Sequence record: PQ438393.1
Direction: 5' to 3' (one strand)
DNA length: 64,000 nt
Source: Escherichia phage vB_Eco_J-01
Positions 42,829-49,956 of this stretch are shown in pieces (within the stretch, counting starts at the first letter, position 1; each line of letters opens with the position of its first letter). A program made the translations under genes and the position numbers. The notes beneath the pieces were generated by a model that saw only the letters and a list, made by a program, of their open reading frames with translations, had not been told where the DNA came from and did no database searches.

Positions 42829-43257
42829 ATGTTACCAGTACCTGTAACCTTTGTAGAAAAAGCCTACTACTCTTTAGAACAAAACTGTAAAAGAGCTAAA
42901 AATTTTATTGAAAGTTTAGCAGAACAGCGTTACACTGTATCTAAAAAGGGATGGTTCAGAACTTCACAATATTCAGTCAACCCTTTCGGAGAAGTTCGTG
43001 TGCTGTATGGCAACACAGAAAATATCTTAGAGAGAATGTTAGAACTAGATAGGATCTCCTCCTGTGATTATCAACTGTTGAAATTTTACGATTTGTCAGA
43101 AAACTTTAAAAACTTTCTTGACGATTTATGTAAACGAAAAACAGAAGAAGATACAATACCAGTATCTATGGAAGAATTAACGTTCTTAAGAGATATTATG
43201 GTTTTTGAAGAAGACCCTGAAATCACAAAAGAGGAGATTTTAAGTAGTGGCAAATAA
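42829..43257 (+). CDS. hypothetical protein
   Basis: 142-aa track ORF with GGAGG RBS. Confidence 0.5.
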   Translation: MLPVPVTFVEKAYYSLEQNCKRAKNFIESLAEQRYTVSKKGWFRTSQYSVNPFGEVRVLYGNTENILERMLELDRISSCDYQLLKFYDLSENFKNFLDDLCKRKTEEDTIPVSMEELTFLRDIMVFEEDPEITKEEILSSGK

Positions 43258-43756
43258 GTATGATCGTCCACCAACTGATTACTATCCTACTCCACAAAAA
43301 TGTATAAATGCATTATTTAGTGTAATAGATTTTAATAACCTTAAAGAAGAAGGTTTTATTTTTGCAGAACCGTGTAAAGGCGCTGCTGCTGCAATTTATC
43401 AACATTTTCCAGAAGGATCAGAATATTGTGAGTTAGAAGAAGGGAAAGATTATTTTAACCATGAATGGCATACTAAGCCGGATATTATAATCACAAATCC
43501 CCCATTCAAACTTGCACTTGAGTTCTTGCAAAAGAGCTTAAAAGAAGCAGACGTTTGCATATACTTGTTGCGTCTTGGGTTCCTAGAGTCTATTAAACGA
43601 AGGGAATTCCATAAACAGAATCCACCAACAAATTTGATTGTTCTTTCTGAACGACCATCTTTTGTTGCAGGAGGTACTGATAAGACAGCATATGCTTGGT
43701 ACGTCTACGACCCAAAAAACAGGCTGGGTTTAACTCAACCTTTCTATTTTGTTTAA
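43247..43756 (+). CDS. DNA N6-adenine (or N4-cytosine) methyltransferase, small orphan type
   Basis: amino-MTase motif IV IIITNPPF. Confidence 0.6.
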   Translation: MANKYDRPPTDYYPTPQKCINALFSVIDFNNLKEEGFIFAEPCKGAAAAIYQHFPEGSEYCELEEGKDYFNHEWHTKPDIIITNPPFKLALEFLQKSLKEADVCIYLLRLGFLESIKRREFHKQNPPTNLIVLSERPSFVAGGTDKTAYAWYVYDPKNRLGLTQPFYFV

Positions 43757-43769
43757 GAGGAGCATTTTT

Positions 43770-44000
43770 ATGACCGAGAAATTTATTGTTACTATGGAAC
43801 TCACCTTTGATGAAGAAGATTTTGATCTTCATGTATCAACTAAAGCAGATAACATTCATACAACACAGAGTGTTGCAATCGCTATGTTCTTTAAACAAGC
43901 TATTGCAAAACAAGCTGAAGTATGTGCTGGTTTAGCTGTAGAGTATGCAGAAGTTGTCAAGGTTCTTGAAAGTGCTCGTAACGGCGATTGGGATGAATAA
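43770..44000 (+). CDS. hypothetical protein
   Basis: track ORF trimmed to ATG after AGAGGAG. Confidence 0.45.
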   Translation: MTEKFIVTMELTFDEEDFDLHVSTKADNIHTTQSVAIAMFFKQAIAKQAEVCAGLAVEYAEVVKVLESARNGDWDE

Positions 44001-44203
44001 TGGCATACAATTACTATCTGGTATATTTTAACGAAACTAAGAAAAAAGACACAGGAACTAATGTTTATGCGGAATCCGAAGAACACGCAAAAGCTATTGG
44101 TTCAGTGCTTCTTTCTAGAATAGCAGGTGAAGAAATTCCTGTAGAGGCTATCTTTGCAGAAGTTGACCCTGGTATTCAAGAGGATGATATTACCACTACT
44201 TAA
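44000..44203 (+). CDS. hypothetical protein
   Basis: 67-aa track ORF. Confidence 0.4.
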   Translation: MAYNYYLVYFNETKKKDTGTNVYAESEEHAKAIGSVLLSRIAGEEIPVEAIFAEVDPGIQEDDITTT

Positions 44204-44260
44204 CTGTTGACTTTAACATTAAGGTAGTGCATACTTCCTGTAACAGAACAGGAGGGTATT

Positions 44261-44923
44261 ATGAAGTTTGTACTATATCATCGACTTTCTAAGAAGAAAC
44301 AACAAGGCAACCAGTATGGTATAGAATCACAGGAAGCAGATATTCAACGCTTCCTGGATTCACAAGAAAATTATACTATTGTAGGTAGCTTTGCAGAGTT
44401 TTATTCTGGTAAAGGCGATTGGAAGCAACGTAGAGAGCTTGTAAAAGCTGTTAATCTTTGCAAAGAAACAGGTGCTACACTTGTTGTTGCTAAGGTTGAC
44501 CGTCTTGGACGTAATACAGCCTCTGTTGCAACCTTGTTAGAGATGATTAATGTACGAATAGCCACTATGCCCTCCGCTGAAAATATGATAATAAATATTT
44601 TAGCAGTTCTGGCAGAAGAAGAGGCTCGTGCAATATCTGATCGTGTTAAGAAGAGCCTTAAAGTAGCAAAAGCGAAGGGAACGCTTCTTGGTGCAGCAAA
44701 CCCTAAATACAAAAGAACAGATTATACGAAAACGGAAGAAGCAAAACGCTCAAAAGAGTTTGCGCTTTCTTTAAAAGATTCTTTAGTTGCATACAGAGCT
44801 TGTAAAACGCCATATATGACGATTGCAAAACATCTGAATGAATCAGGAAAGAGAACTATTCGTGGGAGTTTGTTCGATGCCAAAGCGGTACAACGTCTTT
44901 GTGCAAAATTGAATATTAAATAA
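44261..44923 (+). CDS. serine recombinase (resolvase/invertase family)
   Basis: N-terminal catalytic region YHRLSKKKQ, VAKVDRLGRN, RVKKSLKVAKAKG, C-terminal HTH. Confidence 0.75.
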   Translation: MKFVLYHRLSKKKQQGNQYGIESQEADIQRFLDSQENYTIVGSFAEFYSGKGDWKQRRELVKAVNLCKETGATLVVAKVDRLGRNTASVATLLEMINVRIATMPSAENMIINILAVLAEEEARAISDRVKKSLKVAKAKGTLLGAANPKYKRTDYTKTEEAKRSKEFALSLKDSLVAYRACKTPYMTIAKHLNESGKRTIRGSLFDAKAVQRLCAKLNIK

Positions 44924-44932
44924 GGAGGAAAC

Positions 44933-45136
44933 ATGGCAGTTCAATCTTTTGAGGAGACTGTTAAAAAACAATTCCTATCGAAGCGAGCGATGGTTGAATT
45001 TTTGCATTTTCTCGAAGTAGATAGGGTACTTATTGAGACTACACCAGATGGTAACTGGCAAGTCTCGTATATTGCCACCAGGCATATCGTAGACAGTACG
45101 AAAGAAGAAAGTTCGGAAGTTACGGTTGCTAGTTAA
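44933..45136 (+). CDS. hypothetical protein
   Basis: 67-aa track ORF with AAGGAGG RBS. Confidence 0.45.
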   Translation: MAVQSFEETVKKQFLSKRAMVEFLHFLEVDRVLIETTPDGNWQVSYIATRHIVDSTKEESSEVTVAS

Positions 45137-48214: not shown

Positions 48215-48468
48215 AAGGTTTAGAGTTTAACTTTGTAGATGCGTGGGAAGGATGGGATGAACTAGGAGTAGGGGATTTATGTTTTTATGATGTTACCTTG
48301 AAGGAAGAATACAAACATCTAGCGCCCAGTGAAGATTGCGATGTGATTCTATCTATTCTATTAAGTCAGTCTATAGTGCAATTTGATTTTCTAAAAGGTA
48401 GTGAGTGTATTGAAAGTAAAGCATTCCGTTTAGAAGTTTCTCTTGGTGAAGAAGTTCCTGTAGAATAA
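48211..48468 (+). CDS. hypothetical protein
   Basis: 85-aa track ORF. Confidence 0.45.
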   Translation: MKGLEFNFVDAWEGWDELGVGDLCFYDVTLKEEYKHLAPSEDCDVILSILLSQSIVQFDFLKGSECIESKAFRLEVSLGEEVPVE

Positions 48469-48471
48469 TAT

Positions 48472-48495
48472 AAACCCGCTTCGGCGGGTTTTTTG
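48472..48495 (+). terminator. rho-independent terminator (acccgc-ttcg-gcgggt + TTTTTT)
   Basis: GC hairpin with T-run; the same hairpin recurs in opposite orientation at 52849. Confidence 0.6.
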
Positions 48496-48524
48496 TTGAC
48501 AACACCAGTTTTTTCGAATAAACT
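48496..48524 (+). promoter_or_regulatory. sigma70-like promoter (TTGACA-N17-TAAACT)
   Basis: hexamers immediately after the terminator, upstream of 48554. Confidence 0.35.
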
Positions 48525-48553
48525 ACAGAAAAACAGAAGAGGAGAAGATTAGC

Positions 48554-48964
48554 ATGTACTATAGTGACTATTTTGTAAACCCAACAAAAGAACAACTTCA
48601 ATCAGCAGTGGATAAGATGCAGATTGTAGTTAAAGAATGTGAGAAAATAAGAAAACAACTACAAGAAGAGACTGTTGTTGTTAATAAATGGTTTGGTCTT
48701 AAGAAGAAAGTTGTTAGTAAACACAACATCATCCTTGAAAAAGCAAAAACGACAGGAACTAGTTACGCCTTACAAGCCTTGTTACTAAATTACATTGATA
48801 TAGAACAACATTCTCTTCTGCACTGTTGGCTTAACAGCCCTGGTATTGAGGATCTCTTGTTCTGGTTATCGTGTGAATCTGTACTTTTAAATGAGAATGA
48901 GGCTTACCGTTTAAACTTCTGTCTCAAGGCAGAATTACCAGCTAGTGTTAAGGAGAAGAAGTAA
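48554..48964 (+). CDS. hypothetical protein
   Basis: 136-aa track ORF. Confidence 0.5.
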   Translation: MYYSDYFVNPTKEQLQSAVDKMQIVVKECEKIRKQLQEETVVVNKWFGLKKKVVSKHNIILEKAKTTGTSYALQALLLNYIDIEQHSLLHCWLNSPGIEDLLFWLSCESVLLNENEAYRLNFCLKAELPASVKEKK

Positions 48965-48966
48965 TA

Positions 48967-49956
48967 ATGAAAGTTTTAAGTCTTTTTGATGGTATGTCAG
49001 GAGGAATGCTTGCGCTAAAAAGTGCAGGTATTGAAGTAGATACATATTATGCTTCAGAATTAGACAAATTTGCCATAGCTGAAAGCCAAGCAAATTTTCC
49101 AGATATTATTCAGTTAGGTGATGTTACAAAATGGAGAGAATGGGATATCCCGTGGGGAGAAATTGATCTTTTGTTAGGTGGTAGTCCGTGTCAAGGCTTC
49201 TCTTCTTCTGGTAAGGGTTTGAACTTTCAAGATCCGCGATCTAAGCTATTCTTCGAATATGTTGAAATTCTTGAACATATTAAAAAGTTTAATCCTAATG
49301 TTAAGTTCATGCTTGAAAACGTTAAGATGAAAGCGGAGTGGGAAAACGTGATCACAAGTTACTTAGGTGTTGATCCCGTATTCATTAACTCCGCAGATTT
49401 CACTGCACAGAATAGACAACGTTTATACTGGTGCAATTGGGAAATAAAACCTTGGGATATTACCAATGAAGTGTTGCAAGATATCATTGAAGATGATAGT
49501 ATTGTAGACAGAGATAAGGCTTATTGCATAGATGCAAATTATGCCAAAGGTGGTAATATAGAACAGTATTTTGAAAAGAGTCGCAGACAACTGGTTTTTT
49601 ATCCAGCAGCAATATATGGGCGTAGAATTAATGAAAATGGCAAACGTAGTACATCTAAAACTGATCGTTTGGTACATTGCTTGGAAGTTCAGGACAGTGA
49701 AAAAACTCGTTGCCTCACGACTGTGCCGAAAGACGTACTATTAGCTTACATTCCACCTGGAAGATATCTGGATGCCTTTGAAAAATTGAGTGAAGGCGTG
49801 CATTATAGAAAGTTAACTGTTAAAGAGTGTTGCCGCTTACAAGGTGTTCCAGATGATTACTTTAAAGTGAGTAGTAACACACAAGCATATAAGATGTTAG
49901 GTAATGGTTGGACTATACCTGTCATTGCACATATTCTTAAGTGTATGGAGGAATGA
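48967..49956 (+). CDS. DNA (cytosine-5)-methyltransferase
   Basis: motif I LFDGMSGG, motif IV GGSPCQGFS, motif VI FMLENV. Confidence 0.85.
   Translation: MKVLSLFDGMSGGMLALKSAGIEVDTYYASELDKFAIAESQANFPDIIQLGDVTKWREWDIPWGEIDLLLGGSPCQGFSSSGKGLNFQDPRSKLFFEYVEILEHIKKFNPNVKFMLENVKMKAEWENVITSYLGVDPVFINSADFTAQNRQRLYWCNWEIKPWDITNEVLQDIIEDDSIVDRDKAYCIDANYAKGGNIEQYFEKSRRQLVFYPAAIYGRRINENGKRSTSKTDRLVHCLEVQDSEKTRCLTTVPKDVLLAYIPPGRYLDAFEKLSEGVHYRKLTVKECCRLQGVPDDYFKVSSNTQAYKMLGNGWTIPVIAHILKCMEE

Follow-up and report, generated by a model that had tools for sequence, protein, structure and literature searches.

Why would a phage carry DNA methyltransferase genes with no restriction endonuclease beside them, and do such genes protect its DNA from the restriction systems of its hosts? 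The question is raised by a 64,000-nt stretch of DNA from Escherichia phage vB_Eco_J-01 (PQ438393.1; hereafter the window, by which we mean the whole stretch), in which methyltransferase catalytic signatures are confined to two open reading frames (ORFs), a small one at 43247-43756 and a larger one at 48967-49956. The original prediction had called the first an NPPF-motif amino-methyltransferase and the second a C5-cytosine methyltransferase with FxGxxG, PCQ and ENV motifs, had reported no adjacent endonuclease, and had taken the pair to indicate self-protection of phage DNA against host restriction. Its description of the genes holds throughout: both ORFs lie on the + strand with boundaries that coincide with the coding sequences deposited for relatives (PaulScherrer bas60_0202 and bas60_0189; KMB37), all of the named motifs are present, and no recognizable nuclease gene adjoins either one. 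The proposed function fares less well. Our preferred explanation, to which we give an even chance, is that these are two independent, solitary and intact DNA methyltransferases that mask a few motifs on phage DNA from particular host restriction systems.

The window belongs to a phi92-like Justusliebigvirus (Stephanstirmvirinae), and such phages are virulent myoviruses of ~146 kb. Escherichia phages with 98.3-99.3% identity to the whole of region 43000-50200 include JLBYU50, Eryne, Paula, muut, PATM, phi92, PaulScherrer and BME3; in total the region is matched by 60 records, 53 of them over at least 80% of the query, and the window's first 16 kb, with terminase, portal, capsid, NAMPT and tRNA genes, match the same phages. 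Both methyltransferase genes sit inside a long + strand block, at ~16-52 kb by GC skew, that also holds genes for ribonucleotide reductase, thymidylate synthase, ligase, exonucleases, PhoH, a phosphatase, a DprA-like protein and Sir2, together with deoxythymidine diphosphate (dTDP)-sugar genes.

The C5-cytosine methyltransferase

Judged by its motifs, the product of the larger ORF is a canonical C5-cytosine DNA methyltransferase that appears catalytically intact. It is matched by PF00145 along its whole length (E 2e-43; 149.4 bits against a cutoff of 22; residues 1-327 against positions 1-322 of the 324 in the profile) and by TIGR00675 (141.1 bits against a cutoff of 100.65), and it has the catalytic and cofactor motifs in addition to the profile matches: besides the PCQ and ENV elements in Table 1, F-D-G-M-S-G at residues 7-12 fits FxGxxG, and QNRQR and GNGW occupy residues 148-152 and 312-315. 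Alignment with 31 relatives (58-84% identity) shows motifs I, IV, VI, VIII, IX and X to be invariant, down to F7 and G9, Q148, R150 and R152, and G312 and N313, and shows residues ~212-280 to be hypervariable, which is the behaviour expected of a specificity-determining region. The ratio of nonsynonymous to synonymous substitution rates (dN/dS) against the PaulScherrer gene is 0.074, indicating purifying selection. In such an enzyme, Cys75 of the PCQ motif would attack C6 of a flipped-out cytosine, the methyl group of S-adenosylmethionine (AdoMet) would be transferred to C5, and the choice of sequence would be made by the variable region of ~110 aa between motifs VIII and IX.

That region gives no lead to the target. 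The nearest solved relatives by sequence are the DNMT3A and DNMT3B catalytic domains, M.HaeIII and M.HhaI (E ~1e-23 in a search of PDB sequences), and residues ~160-280 do not detectably resemble the recognition domain of E. coli Dcm or of any solved enzyme, so the target sequences of M.HhaI and M.HaeIII cannot be transferred to this enzyme. E. coli Dcm (CCWGG) belongs to the same superfamily, and BASEL records label the phage gene 'Dcm-like'; the Dcm model NF007772, however, gives 30.1 bits against a cutoff of 710, with residues 280-328 alone aligning, and the Dcm-like PDB chains 3lx6 and 3me5 align at residues 273-328 only (motifs IX-X). With the match limited to these two motifs, the name 'Dcm-like' says nothing about specificity, and CCWGG is not implied; in view of the dissimilar recognition domains, the label is unjustified. 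There is also no vsr-like gene adjoining the C5 gene.

The small amino-methyltransferase

The 169-aa protein is probably, in how it would work, a minimal N6-adenine DNA methyltransferase, filed in no curated family. Its ORF is the only one in the window with [DNS]PP[YFWH], it matches phrog_799 ('DNA methyltransferase') with an E of 8e-57, and an AlphaFold model built on the family alignment has a class I Rossmann methyltransferase fold (predicted local distance difference test score, pLDDT, 90.6; predicted template-modelling score, pTM, 0.87). The elements kept across the family are YPTP, EPCKG(xG), an acidic residue, D, I-T-N-P-P-F, RPSF and D..YAW. Two features of the gamma class are thus present, namely the class I Rossmann fold and the motif order X, I, IV with [DN]PP[YFW], and two are not: there is no match to a curated model (N6_Mtase, Eco57I, EcoRI_methylase or TaqI-like), and there is no C-terminal target-recognition domain or specificity subunit, the protein stopping 82 residues past motif IV. 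Searches with the small ORF found no match in Pfam or NCBIfam (E <= 0.01) or among PDB sequences; its best sub-threshold Pfam match is PF13651 (E 0.041, 13.6 bits against a cutoff of 26.4), around motif IV.

This compact format is a property of the family. All 225 homologues from the databases stand alone, are ~160-200 aa long and have no Pfam domain, and an exhaustive profile search retrieved 14,575 cluster representatives at E <= 1e-3, or 7,563 at E <= 1e-10 (clusters at 50% identity). Among the best 150 matches, 149 are 114-260 aa long and one is 560 aa; nearly all are single-domain, and the longer members showed no fusion-partner domain matches beyond weak methyltransferase ones. Since the family is large, uncharacterised and without a curated model, a specificity or a non-DNA substrate established for this enzyme would extend to thousands of phage and prophage proteins.

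The gene is carried by rV5-, phAPEC8- and phi92-like phages and by P2-like prophages, and its product is 86-87% identical to those of phAPEC8-like phages and 47-50% identical to rV5-like, Klebsiella and Salmonella relatives. Between the two genera it is the best-conserved gene locally (86%, against 71-76% for PhoH, Sir2 and the phosphatase), and its dN/dS against phAPEC8 (0.065) again points to purifying selection. In bacterial genomes 57 copies were found, in P2-like prophages whose genes run integrase, CI, Cox, CII-like, small ORFs, methyltransferase, replication nickase, an arrangement found also in Vibrio phage Kappa/K139; the Dam gene of Haemophilus phage HP1 (173 aa) occupies the same early replication operon, but downstream of rep. 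A candidate obligatory partner or specificity subunit was sought by clustering neighbours in 39 bacterial loci and in the phage relatives, and was rejected, none being conserved family-wide and orf142 being confined to Stephanstirmvirinae-like phages.

From these data we infer that the substrate is DNA and the target base adenine. With no separate recognition domain, target recognition would run through the short loops after the RPSF element, and N6 of adenine would be methylated within a specific DNA motif by an enzyme with the order X (YPTP), I (EPCKG), IV (TNPPF). The precedent for so compact a format would be the HP1-type phage Dam, which methylates DNA adenine sequence-specifically although only 173 aa long.

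Is DNA really the substrate? The protein might instead methylate RNA (N6-methyladenine, m6A, or N2-methylguanine, m2G, in rRNA or tRNA, as with METTL5, PH1948, RsmC or RsmD-like enzymes) or protein glutamine (HemK/PrmC-like), leaving the C5 enzyme as the only one to modify DNA. Two observations weigh against DNA: the RNA/protein-type MTS domain is weakly matched by 21 of 45 members in a lenient Pfam scan, the second most frequent match, and the fold is as much like that of RNA m6A methyltransferases (PH1948, METTL5) as like that of DNA enzymes. NPPF occurs also in RsmC-type m2G enzymes, the small enzyme has no DNA-recognition domain, and the phage has a tRNA gene cluster. Set against these points, the same scan yielded 79 weak matches to DNA adenine families (EcoRI_methylase 41, N6_Mtase 14, Dam PF05869 13, Eco57I 11; all sub-threshold and centred on motif IV), and the top PDB-sequence match of the family profile is a type I HsdM subunit, weak (E 0.006) but spanning YxTP, motif I and NPPF, with YPTP of the small enzyme aligned to 'YFTP' of HsdM StySJI. 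Moreover, the family is essentially phage- or prophage-borne and lies among replication genes in P2-like prophages without tRNAs, HP1 Dam (PF05869) is a DNA enzyme of just this size, and some members have a zinc-ribbon insert after RPxF of a kind typical of nucleic-acid recognition loops. We therefore favour DNA over RNA as the substrate, short of proof, and consider an RNA or protein substrate quite unlikely.

The members with this insertion (P0061, P0073 and P0094) have it, Cys-rich and zinc-ribbon-like, just after RPxF; the window protein is without it. Kappa kp12 (4896-5513 of stretch L062) has a C-terminal part that weakly matches Zn_ribbon_3 (E 3e-4). In that subset of the family the insertion may be a minimal recognition module.

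Gene neighbourhood and orphan status

An orphan methyltransferase is one whose neighbours include no endonuclease, and none was found here. Searches of Pfam, NCBIfam and PADLOC gave no match for any ORF flanking the two genes. Among the neighbours, orf202 alone is as large as a restriction enzyme; its model (pLDDT 77.7) has weak NTF2/cystatin-like matches and no nuclease fold, the structural test of neighbours having covered orf202 alone. Neither gene thus has a recognizable adjoining, co-inherited cognate endonuclease of the kind found in a type II restriction-modification (RM) system.

The arrangement of Table 1 suggests that the C5 gene lies in a self-contained unit, comprising a promoter-like site, orf136, the C5 gene, a 41-aa ORF (orf41) and orf202, between terminators. 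The region has 18 terminator-like sites, well above the 6.9 +/- 3.2 of shuffled sequence, and promoter-like sites show no overall enrichment. Upstream of the small enzyme, orf142 is a syntenic neighbour and not an obligatory partner: the two genes lie side by side in 132 phage records (phi92-like, phAPEC8-like and some Klebsiella and Pseudomonas phages), the rV5-like and P2-like carriers have no orf142, and its identity between the two genera is 45%, that of the small enzyme being 86%.

The position of the C5 gene is itself conserved. The order phrog_16551, methyltransferase, phrog_8514 and, farther on, Sir2 is kept in phAPEC8, phiWec181 and Klebsiella phage phi1_175008, and the slot (48554-50688 in the window; 13465-15189 in phAPEC8, stretch L124; 2483-4222 of stretch L122 and 2495-4550 of stretch L123 for the other two phages) is occupied by the 329-aa PF00145 enzyme in phi92-like phages and by a 227-aa phrog_757 'DNA methyltransferase' in the other three. 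At 95% identity or more the C5 gene occurs in 54 records, all phi92-like, the next relatives being at most 52% identical; orf202 occurs in 141 phage records, phAPEC8-like ones included, and orf136 (23% identity) and orf202 (73%) persist beside the other methyltransferase in phAPEC8-like phages. That enzymes with no detectable similarity occupy one slot implies that a methyltransferase function was kept at this position while the enzyme was exchanged; the small gene, unlike the C5 gene, is vertically conserved. The 227-aa protein has no Pfam and no PDB-sequence match. Its candidacy as a remote C5-type relative, prompted by DGSG, FPSC and ENP read by eye, found no support in BLASTP or hhalign (probability 0.3%); papers on related phages report HHpred matches to C5 enzymes for an rV5-like 'cytosine methylase', which may or may not be the phrog_757 protein.

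These observations also bear on whether one of the methyltransferases could be half of a cryptic RM or methylation-dependent system, with orf136, orf142 or orf202 as its nuclease. The joint presence of orf136, the C5 gene, orf41 and orf202 in one terminator-bounded operon, the overlap of orf142 with the start of the small gene, and the lack of an assigned function for orf136, orf142 and orf202 would all be in keeping with such a system. Pfam, NCBIfam and PADLOC, however, give no nuclease or defence match for any neighbour, the model of orf202 (the only neighbour so modelled) shows no nuclease fold, and most genomes that carry the small enzyme have no orf142; the persistence of orf136 and orf202 beside a different methyltransferase is, moreover, incompatible with a specificity-matched nuclease. 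We regard this arrangement as largely refuted and exceedingly improbable.

Table 1. Features of the two methyltransferase loci in the window
Feature	Coordinates	Strand	Basis or remark
orf142, phrog_15078	42829..43257	+	Overlaps the start of the small methyltransferase gene by 11 nt
Shine-Dalgarno AGAGGAG of the small gene	43230..43236	+	Sequence read; 10 nt 5' of GTG
Stand-alone amino-methyltransferase gene, 169 aa	43247..43756	+	GTG start
YPTP, residues 13-16, motif X-like	43283..43294	+	T15 invariant; Y13 and P16 in at least 90% of 45 members
EPCKG, residues 41-45, motif I (AdoMet binding)	43367..43381	+	E41, P42, C43 and G45 in at least 90% of family
TNPPF, residues 83-87, catalytic motif IV	43493..43507	+	T83, N84, P85 and P86 invariant; F87 in at least 90%
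Terminator-like hairpin, ends upstream transcription unit	48472..48491	+	8-bp GC-rich stem and T run
Sigma-70-like promoter TTGACA-17-TAAACT before C5 operon	48496..48524	+	10/12 matches, intergenic; consensus match only
orf136, phrog_16551, first gene of C5 operon	48554..48964	+	Flanks the methyltransferase slot in all Stephanstirmvirinae examined
Shine-Dalgarno AAGGAG of the C5 gene	48950-48955	+	Sequence read
C5-cytosine DNA methyltransferase gene, 329 aa	48967..49956	+	ATG start; PF00145 and TIGR00675
GGSPCQGFS, residues 71-79, motif IV with catalytic Cys75	49177..49203	+	G71-Q76, F78 and S79 invariant; G77 in at least 90%
ENV, residues 117-119, motif VI	49315..49323	+	Invariant in alignment
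Putative target-recognition domain, residues ~160-280, between motifs VIII and IX	49444..49806	+	Alignment
41-aa hydrophobic ORF overlapping the C5 stop codon	49953..50078	+	Annotated in relatives
orf202, phrog_8514, last gene of C5 operon, acidic	50080..50688	+	Isoelectric point (pI) 4.7; no nuclease fold
Terminator-like hairpin at C5 operon end	50705..50725	+	Signal scan

Restriction sensitivity and site avoidance

If orphan methyltransferase genes predicted restriction resistance in this phage group, the published plating data should reveal it; they reveal the opposite. EcoRI, EcoRV, EcoKI, EcoP1_I, EcoCFT_I, EcoCFT_II and the bacteriophage exclusion (BREX) system that recognizes GCTAAT are all blocked by adenine methylation of their own sites. 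The BASEL paper nonetheless describes phi92-like phages as 'exceptionally susceptible' to EcoKI, EcoCFT_I, EcoRI, EcoRV, EcoP1_I and EcoCFT_II (PMC8594841), and in a second report the GCTAAT BREX of E. fergusonii restricts the Durham phages Pau (confirmed to be Paula, LR865361) and PATM ~1e7-fold (PMC8565348). Sensitivity to systems that adenine methylation blocks means that the small enzyme is not a promiscuous adenine methyltransferase of the Hia5 or PhiARM81ld_p56 type. None of the RM systems assayed on near-identical phages is known to be blocked by C5 methylation; for cytosine, the second report does not list Pau or PATM among 13 BrxU-sensitive phages, although BrxU degrades DNA substituted with 5-methylcytosine (PMC8565348).

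These results weigh against broad protection. Also counting against our preferred explanation, neither a methylome nor enzymology turned up in the literature, whether for the two enzymes or for other members of the small enzyme's family. Pau DNA is said to have been reported by Kelly et al. as 'not modified', an expression that may mean only 'not hypermodified'; so far as it goes, the statement also speaks for the view, discussed above, that the small enzyme acts on RNA or protein. Papers on related phages speak of 'adenine and cytosine methylation' on the strength of annotation and of a ClaI digest that is confounded by host Dam, and a 2026 Durham paper on modification deals with T-even-like phages only.

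What the window does display is avoidance of restriction sites, and it is extreme. Sites of AAGCTT, GGWCC, GGYRCC, CTGCAG and AGTACT are entirely absent, against 21.6, 19.2, 17.1, 11.9 and 11.3 expected, and GGCC (20 against 49) and CATG (109 against 224) are strongly depleted. In the syntenic part of phAPEC8 (12000-61999), observed and expected counts are 46 and 46.3 for AAGCTT, 14 and 23.2 for GGWCC, 11 and 11.7 for GGYRCC, and 155 and 191 for CATG, so that for these four the avoidance is genus-specific; CCGG, GGCC, CTGCAG, GGATCC and GRCGYC are depleted in both. Sites of GATC (ratio 0.96), CCWGG (0.88), GCGC, TGCA, GAATTC and GATATC occur in the window at expected frequency, and for GAATTC and GATATC this agrees with the sensitivity to EcoRI and EcoRV that has been reported. 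The missing AAGCTT, GGWCC, GGYRCC and CTGCAG sites point to RM pressure on the genome, and in that respect favour an anti-restriction role. Site avoidance is thus the dominant anti-restriction strategy of the window, a further argument against methylation as general protection. Nor did avoidance disclose the C5 target: a contrast with the syntenic 50 kb of phAPEC8, which is without the C5 enzyme, yielded no candidate motif that is clearly avoided there and tolerated in the window, the nearest being GTAC (0.36 against 0.74).

For the small enzyme, the leading guess at a target is GATC, by analogy with the Dams of T4, P1, HP1 and other phages and given that GATC is not avoided. The Salmonella BREX (GATCAG) is described as having 'had little effect' on Pau, a result that could reflect either a weaker system or methylation overlapping GATC; the window has 40 GATCAG and 29 GCTAAT sites.

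Wild-type MG1655 carries McrA, McrBC and Mrr. Several relatives were isolated on this strain, according to the host fields of their records, so whatever methylation pattern these phages have is presumably tolerated by those type IV enzymes.

What the enzymes may do

How far, then, does the proposal of self-protection stand? In its favour, the two genes have no partner, are intact and show purifying selection, an early/middle block of DNA-metabolism genes contains them both, and the C5 slot holds an alternative methyltransferase elsewhere; against it, near-identical phages are sensitive to six RM systems and BREX, and the window relies heavily on site avoidance. As a general mechanism, protection is contradicted; it is plausible only in a narrow, motif-specific form. 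Under our preferred explanation the two enzymes would methylate phage DNA as it replicates, and the few motifs so masked would complement the much stronger avoidance of restriction sites.

Genes engaged in an arms race are not usually conserved between genera as strongly as the small enzyme is, which counts against our preferred explanation. Both enzymes might instead methylate phage DNA for a purpose internal to the phage cycle. Proposed purposes are full methylation against MutH or methyl-directed nicking, a mark for replication or packaging, the timing of expression, and the discrimination of phage from host DNA by a phage nuclease. The conservation of the small enzyme relative to PhoH, Sir2 and the phosphatase, its retention beside replication genes across Stephanstirmvirinae, Vequintavirinae and P2-like prophages, and the high sensitivity of near-identical phages to every RM and BREX system in the assays that we have cited speak for such a role, and reviews call the role of phage Dams (T4, T2, HP1) in the phage cycle still unclear. 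Yet no phage-specific methyl-dependent function is known in the phi92-like group, the C5 gene is genus-specific and swapped in sister genera in a diversifying, defence-like turnover, and the assays comprise only seven defence systems, none of them known to be blocked by C5 methylation. An internal role for both enzymes is accordingly a possibility that we place on the unlikely side. For the small enzyme taken by itself, we likewise think it unlikely that the conserved role is a DNA mark needed by the phage (in replication, packaging or self/non-self recognition) or RNA methylation, and not anti-restriction; if true, it would explain why the gene is the best conserved locally in phages that are fully sensitive to restriction.

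The genes could also be intact and virion DNA nevertheless little methylated or not at all, through low expression, rare targets or a specificity like that of host Dam or Dcm, the enzymes then being silent on standard hosts. The absence of Pau and PATM from the BrxU-sensitive phages fits this idea, and the near-expected frequencies of GATC and CCWGG mean that a host-mimicking specificity would be invisible on dam+ dcm+ hosts. But strong purifying selection on both genes, good ribosome-binding sites ahead of both and the promoter-like element argue against it, and the 'not modified' description of Pau DNA is ambiguous for the reason already given. We find silence of this kind improbable, and return to narrow, motif-specific masking as the explanation that we prefer.

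Other features of the window

Between the two methyltransferase genes lies a gene for a serine recombinase/invertase of 220 aa (44261-44923, +; PF00239, phrog_125), and a 14-nt inverted repeat (13 of 14 positions complementary; 43240-43253 and 44190-44203) brackets the small methyltransferase gene, orf76 and orf67. Invertible or phase-variable control by the recombinase was considered and rejected: inverted repeats are at chance level (~10 pairs expected per 11 kb) and relatives are collinear.

Beyond the C5 gene, orf202 is overlapped at its 3' end by a perfect sigma-70 consensus promoter (50660-50689, +; TTGACA, 18-nt spacer, TATAAT, extended -10 TG); the terminator at 50705-50725 and the next gene follow closely. 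Two very acidic proteins are encoded here, orf202 (net charge -17) and the product of an ORF at ~50743-51297 (pI 4.05, net charge -34) that BASEL records label 'putative aminoacyl-tRNA synthetase'. In charge they recall the anti-restriction proteins that mimic DNA; the orf202 model, with its NTF2/cystatin-like half, has no known mimic fold.

The dTDP-sugar (rhamnose-pathway) genes at ~37187-39891 (+) encode nucleotide-sugar epimerases and dTDP-4-dehydrorhamnose 3,5-epimerase (coordinates by mapping to Eryne). DNA glycosylation by their products has been a matter of speculation in two papers, and BASEL sees no resulting restriction resistance. A Sir2-family gene (51285-52097, +; PF02146, phrog_2162) and, by mapping to Eryne, the genes of nicotinamide adenine dinucleotide (NAD) salvage, NAMPT and ribose-phosphate pyrophosphokinase (~14400-17200, -), may be relevant to countering NAD-depleting host defences.

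Several unannotated 'Campylobacter phage' records (MG065639, MG065645, MG065656, MG065689 and others, with Campylobacter jejuni in the host field) are 98.3% identical to the region, and are probably mislabelled or contaminant coliphage genomes.

Comparison with known systems

With M.HhaI, M.HaeIII and DNMT3A/3B the C5 enzyme has in common the ten-motif architecture, the PCQ cysteine, ENV and QxRxR, the similarity extending over the catalytic half; unlike M.HhaI and M.HaeIII, it is without a cognate endonuclease. The small enzyme differs more from its characterized counterparts. M.TaqI, M.EcoRI, HsdM and the methyltransferase domain of MmeI are 2-3 times larger and have a C-terminal target-recognition domain or an S-subunit, neither of which it has, and it never reaches the curated Pfam threshold of the gamma-class N6-adenine families. 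Its sequence similarity to METTL5 and PH1948 is marginal (E 0.24-0.73), and METTL5 requires a TRMT112 partner, whereas the small family is phage-borne among DNA replication genes.

Closest in format is the HP1 orf13 Dam (PF05869), which is of similar size, solitary and similarly built, with a compact D-x-W/Y-x-TP followed by NPP[FY]S and a short C-terminus; it is without the EPCKG-type motif I of the small enzyme, and homology between the two is unproven. PF05869 has no match to the small protein at E <= 10 (Kappa kp12, E 0.18; HP1 orf13 itself, E 7e-75). Comparison of the family profile with HP1 Dam by hhalign gave a probability of 45% (E 2e-4, 120 columns), the HP1-Dam relatives retrieved being only those of 76-98% identity.

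Among genomes, the likeness is nearly complete. The Justusliebigvirus orthologues (phi92, PaulScherrer, BME3, Paula, Eryne and KMB37) are 97.6-99.7% identical in amino-acid sequence, with the same gene order and boundaries; the phi92 counterparts are gp043 (the C5 enzyme) and the small methyltransferase adjoining gp057, and relatives already have the labels 'Dcm-like C5 cytosine methyltransferase' and 'putative N6 adenine methyltransferase'. Both genes and the anti-restriction reading are thus already known, the genes being annotated in some 55-60 near-identical deposited genomes and the reading having been published for BME3, the paper on which takes both for orphan methyltransferases that protect against host restriction. 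The window shows no material difference from published Justusliebigvirus genomes, and represents a further isolate of that genus.

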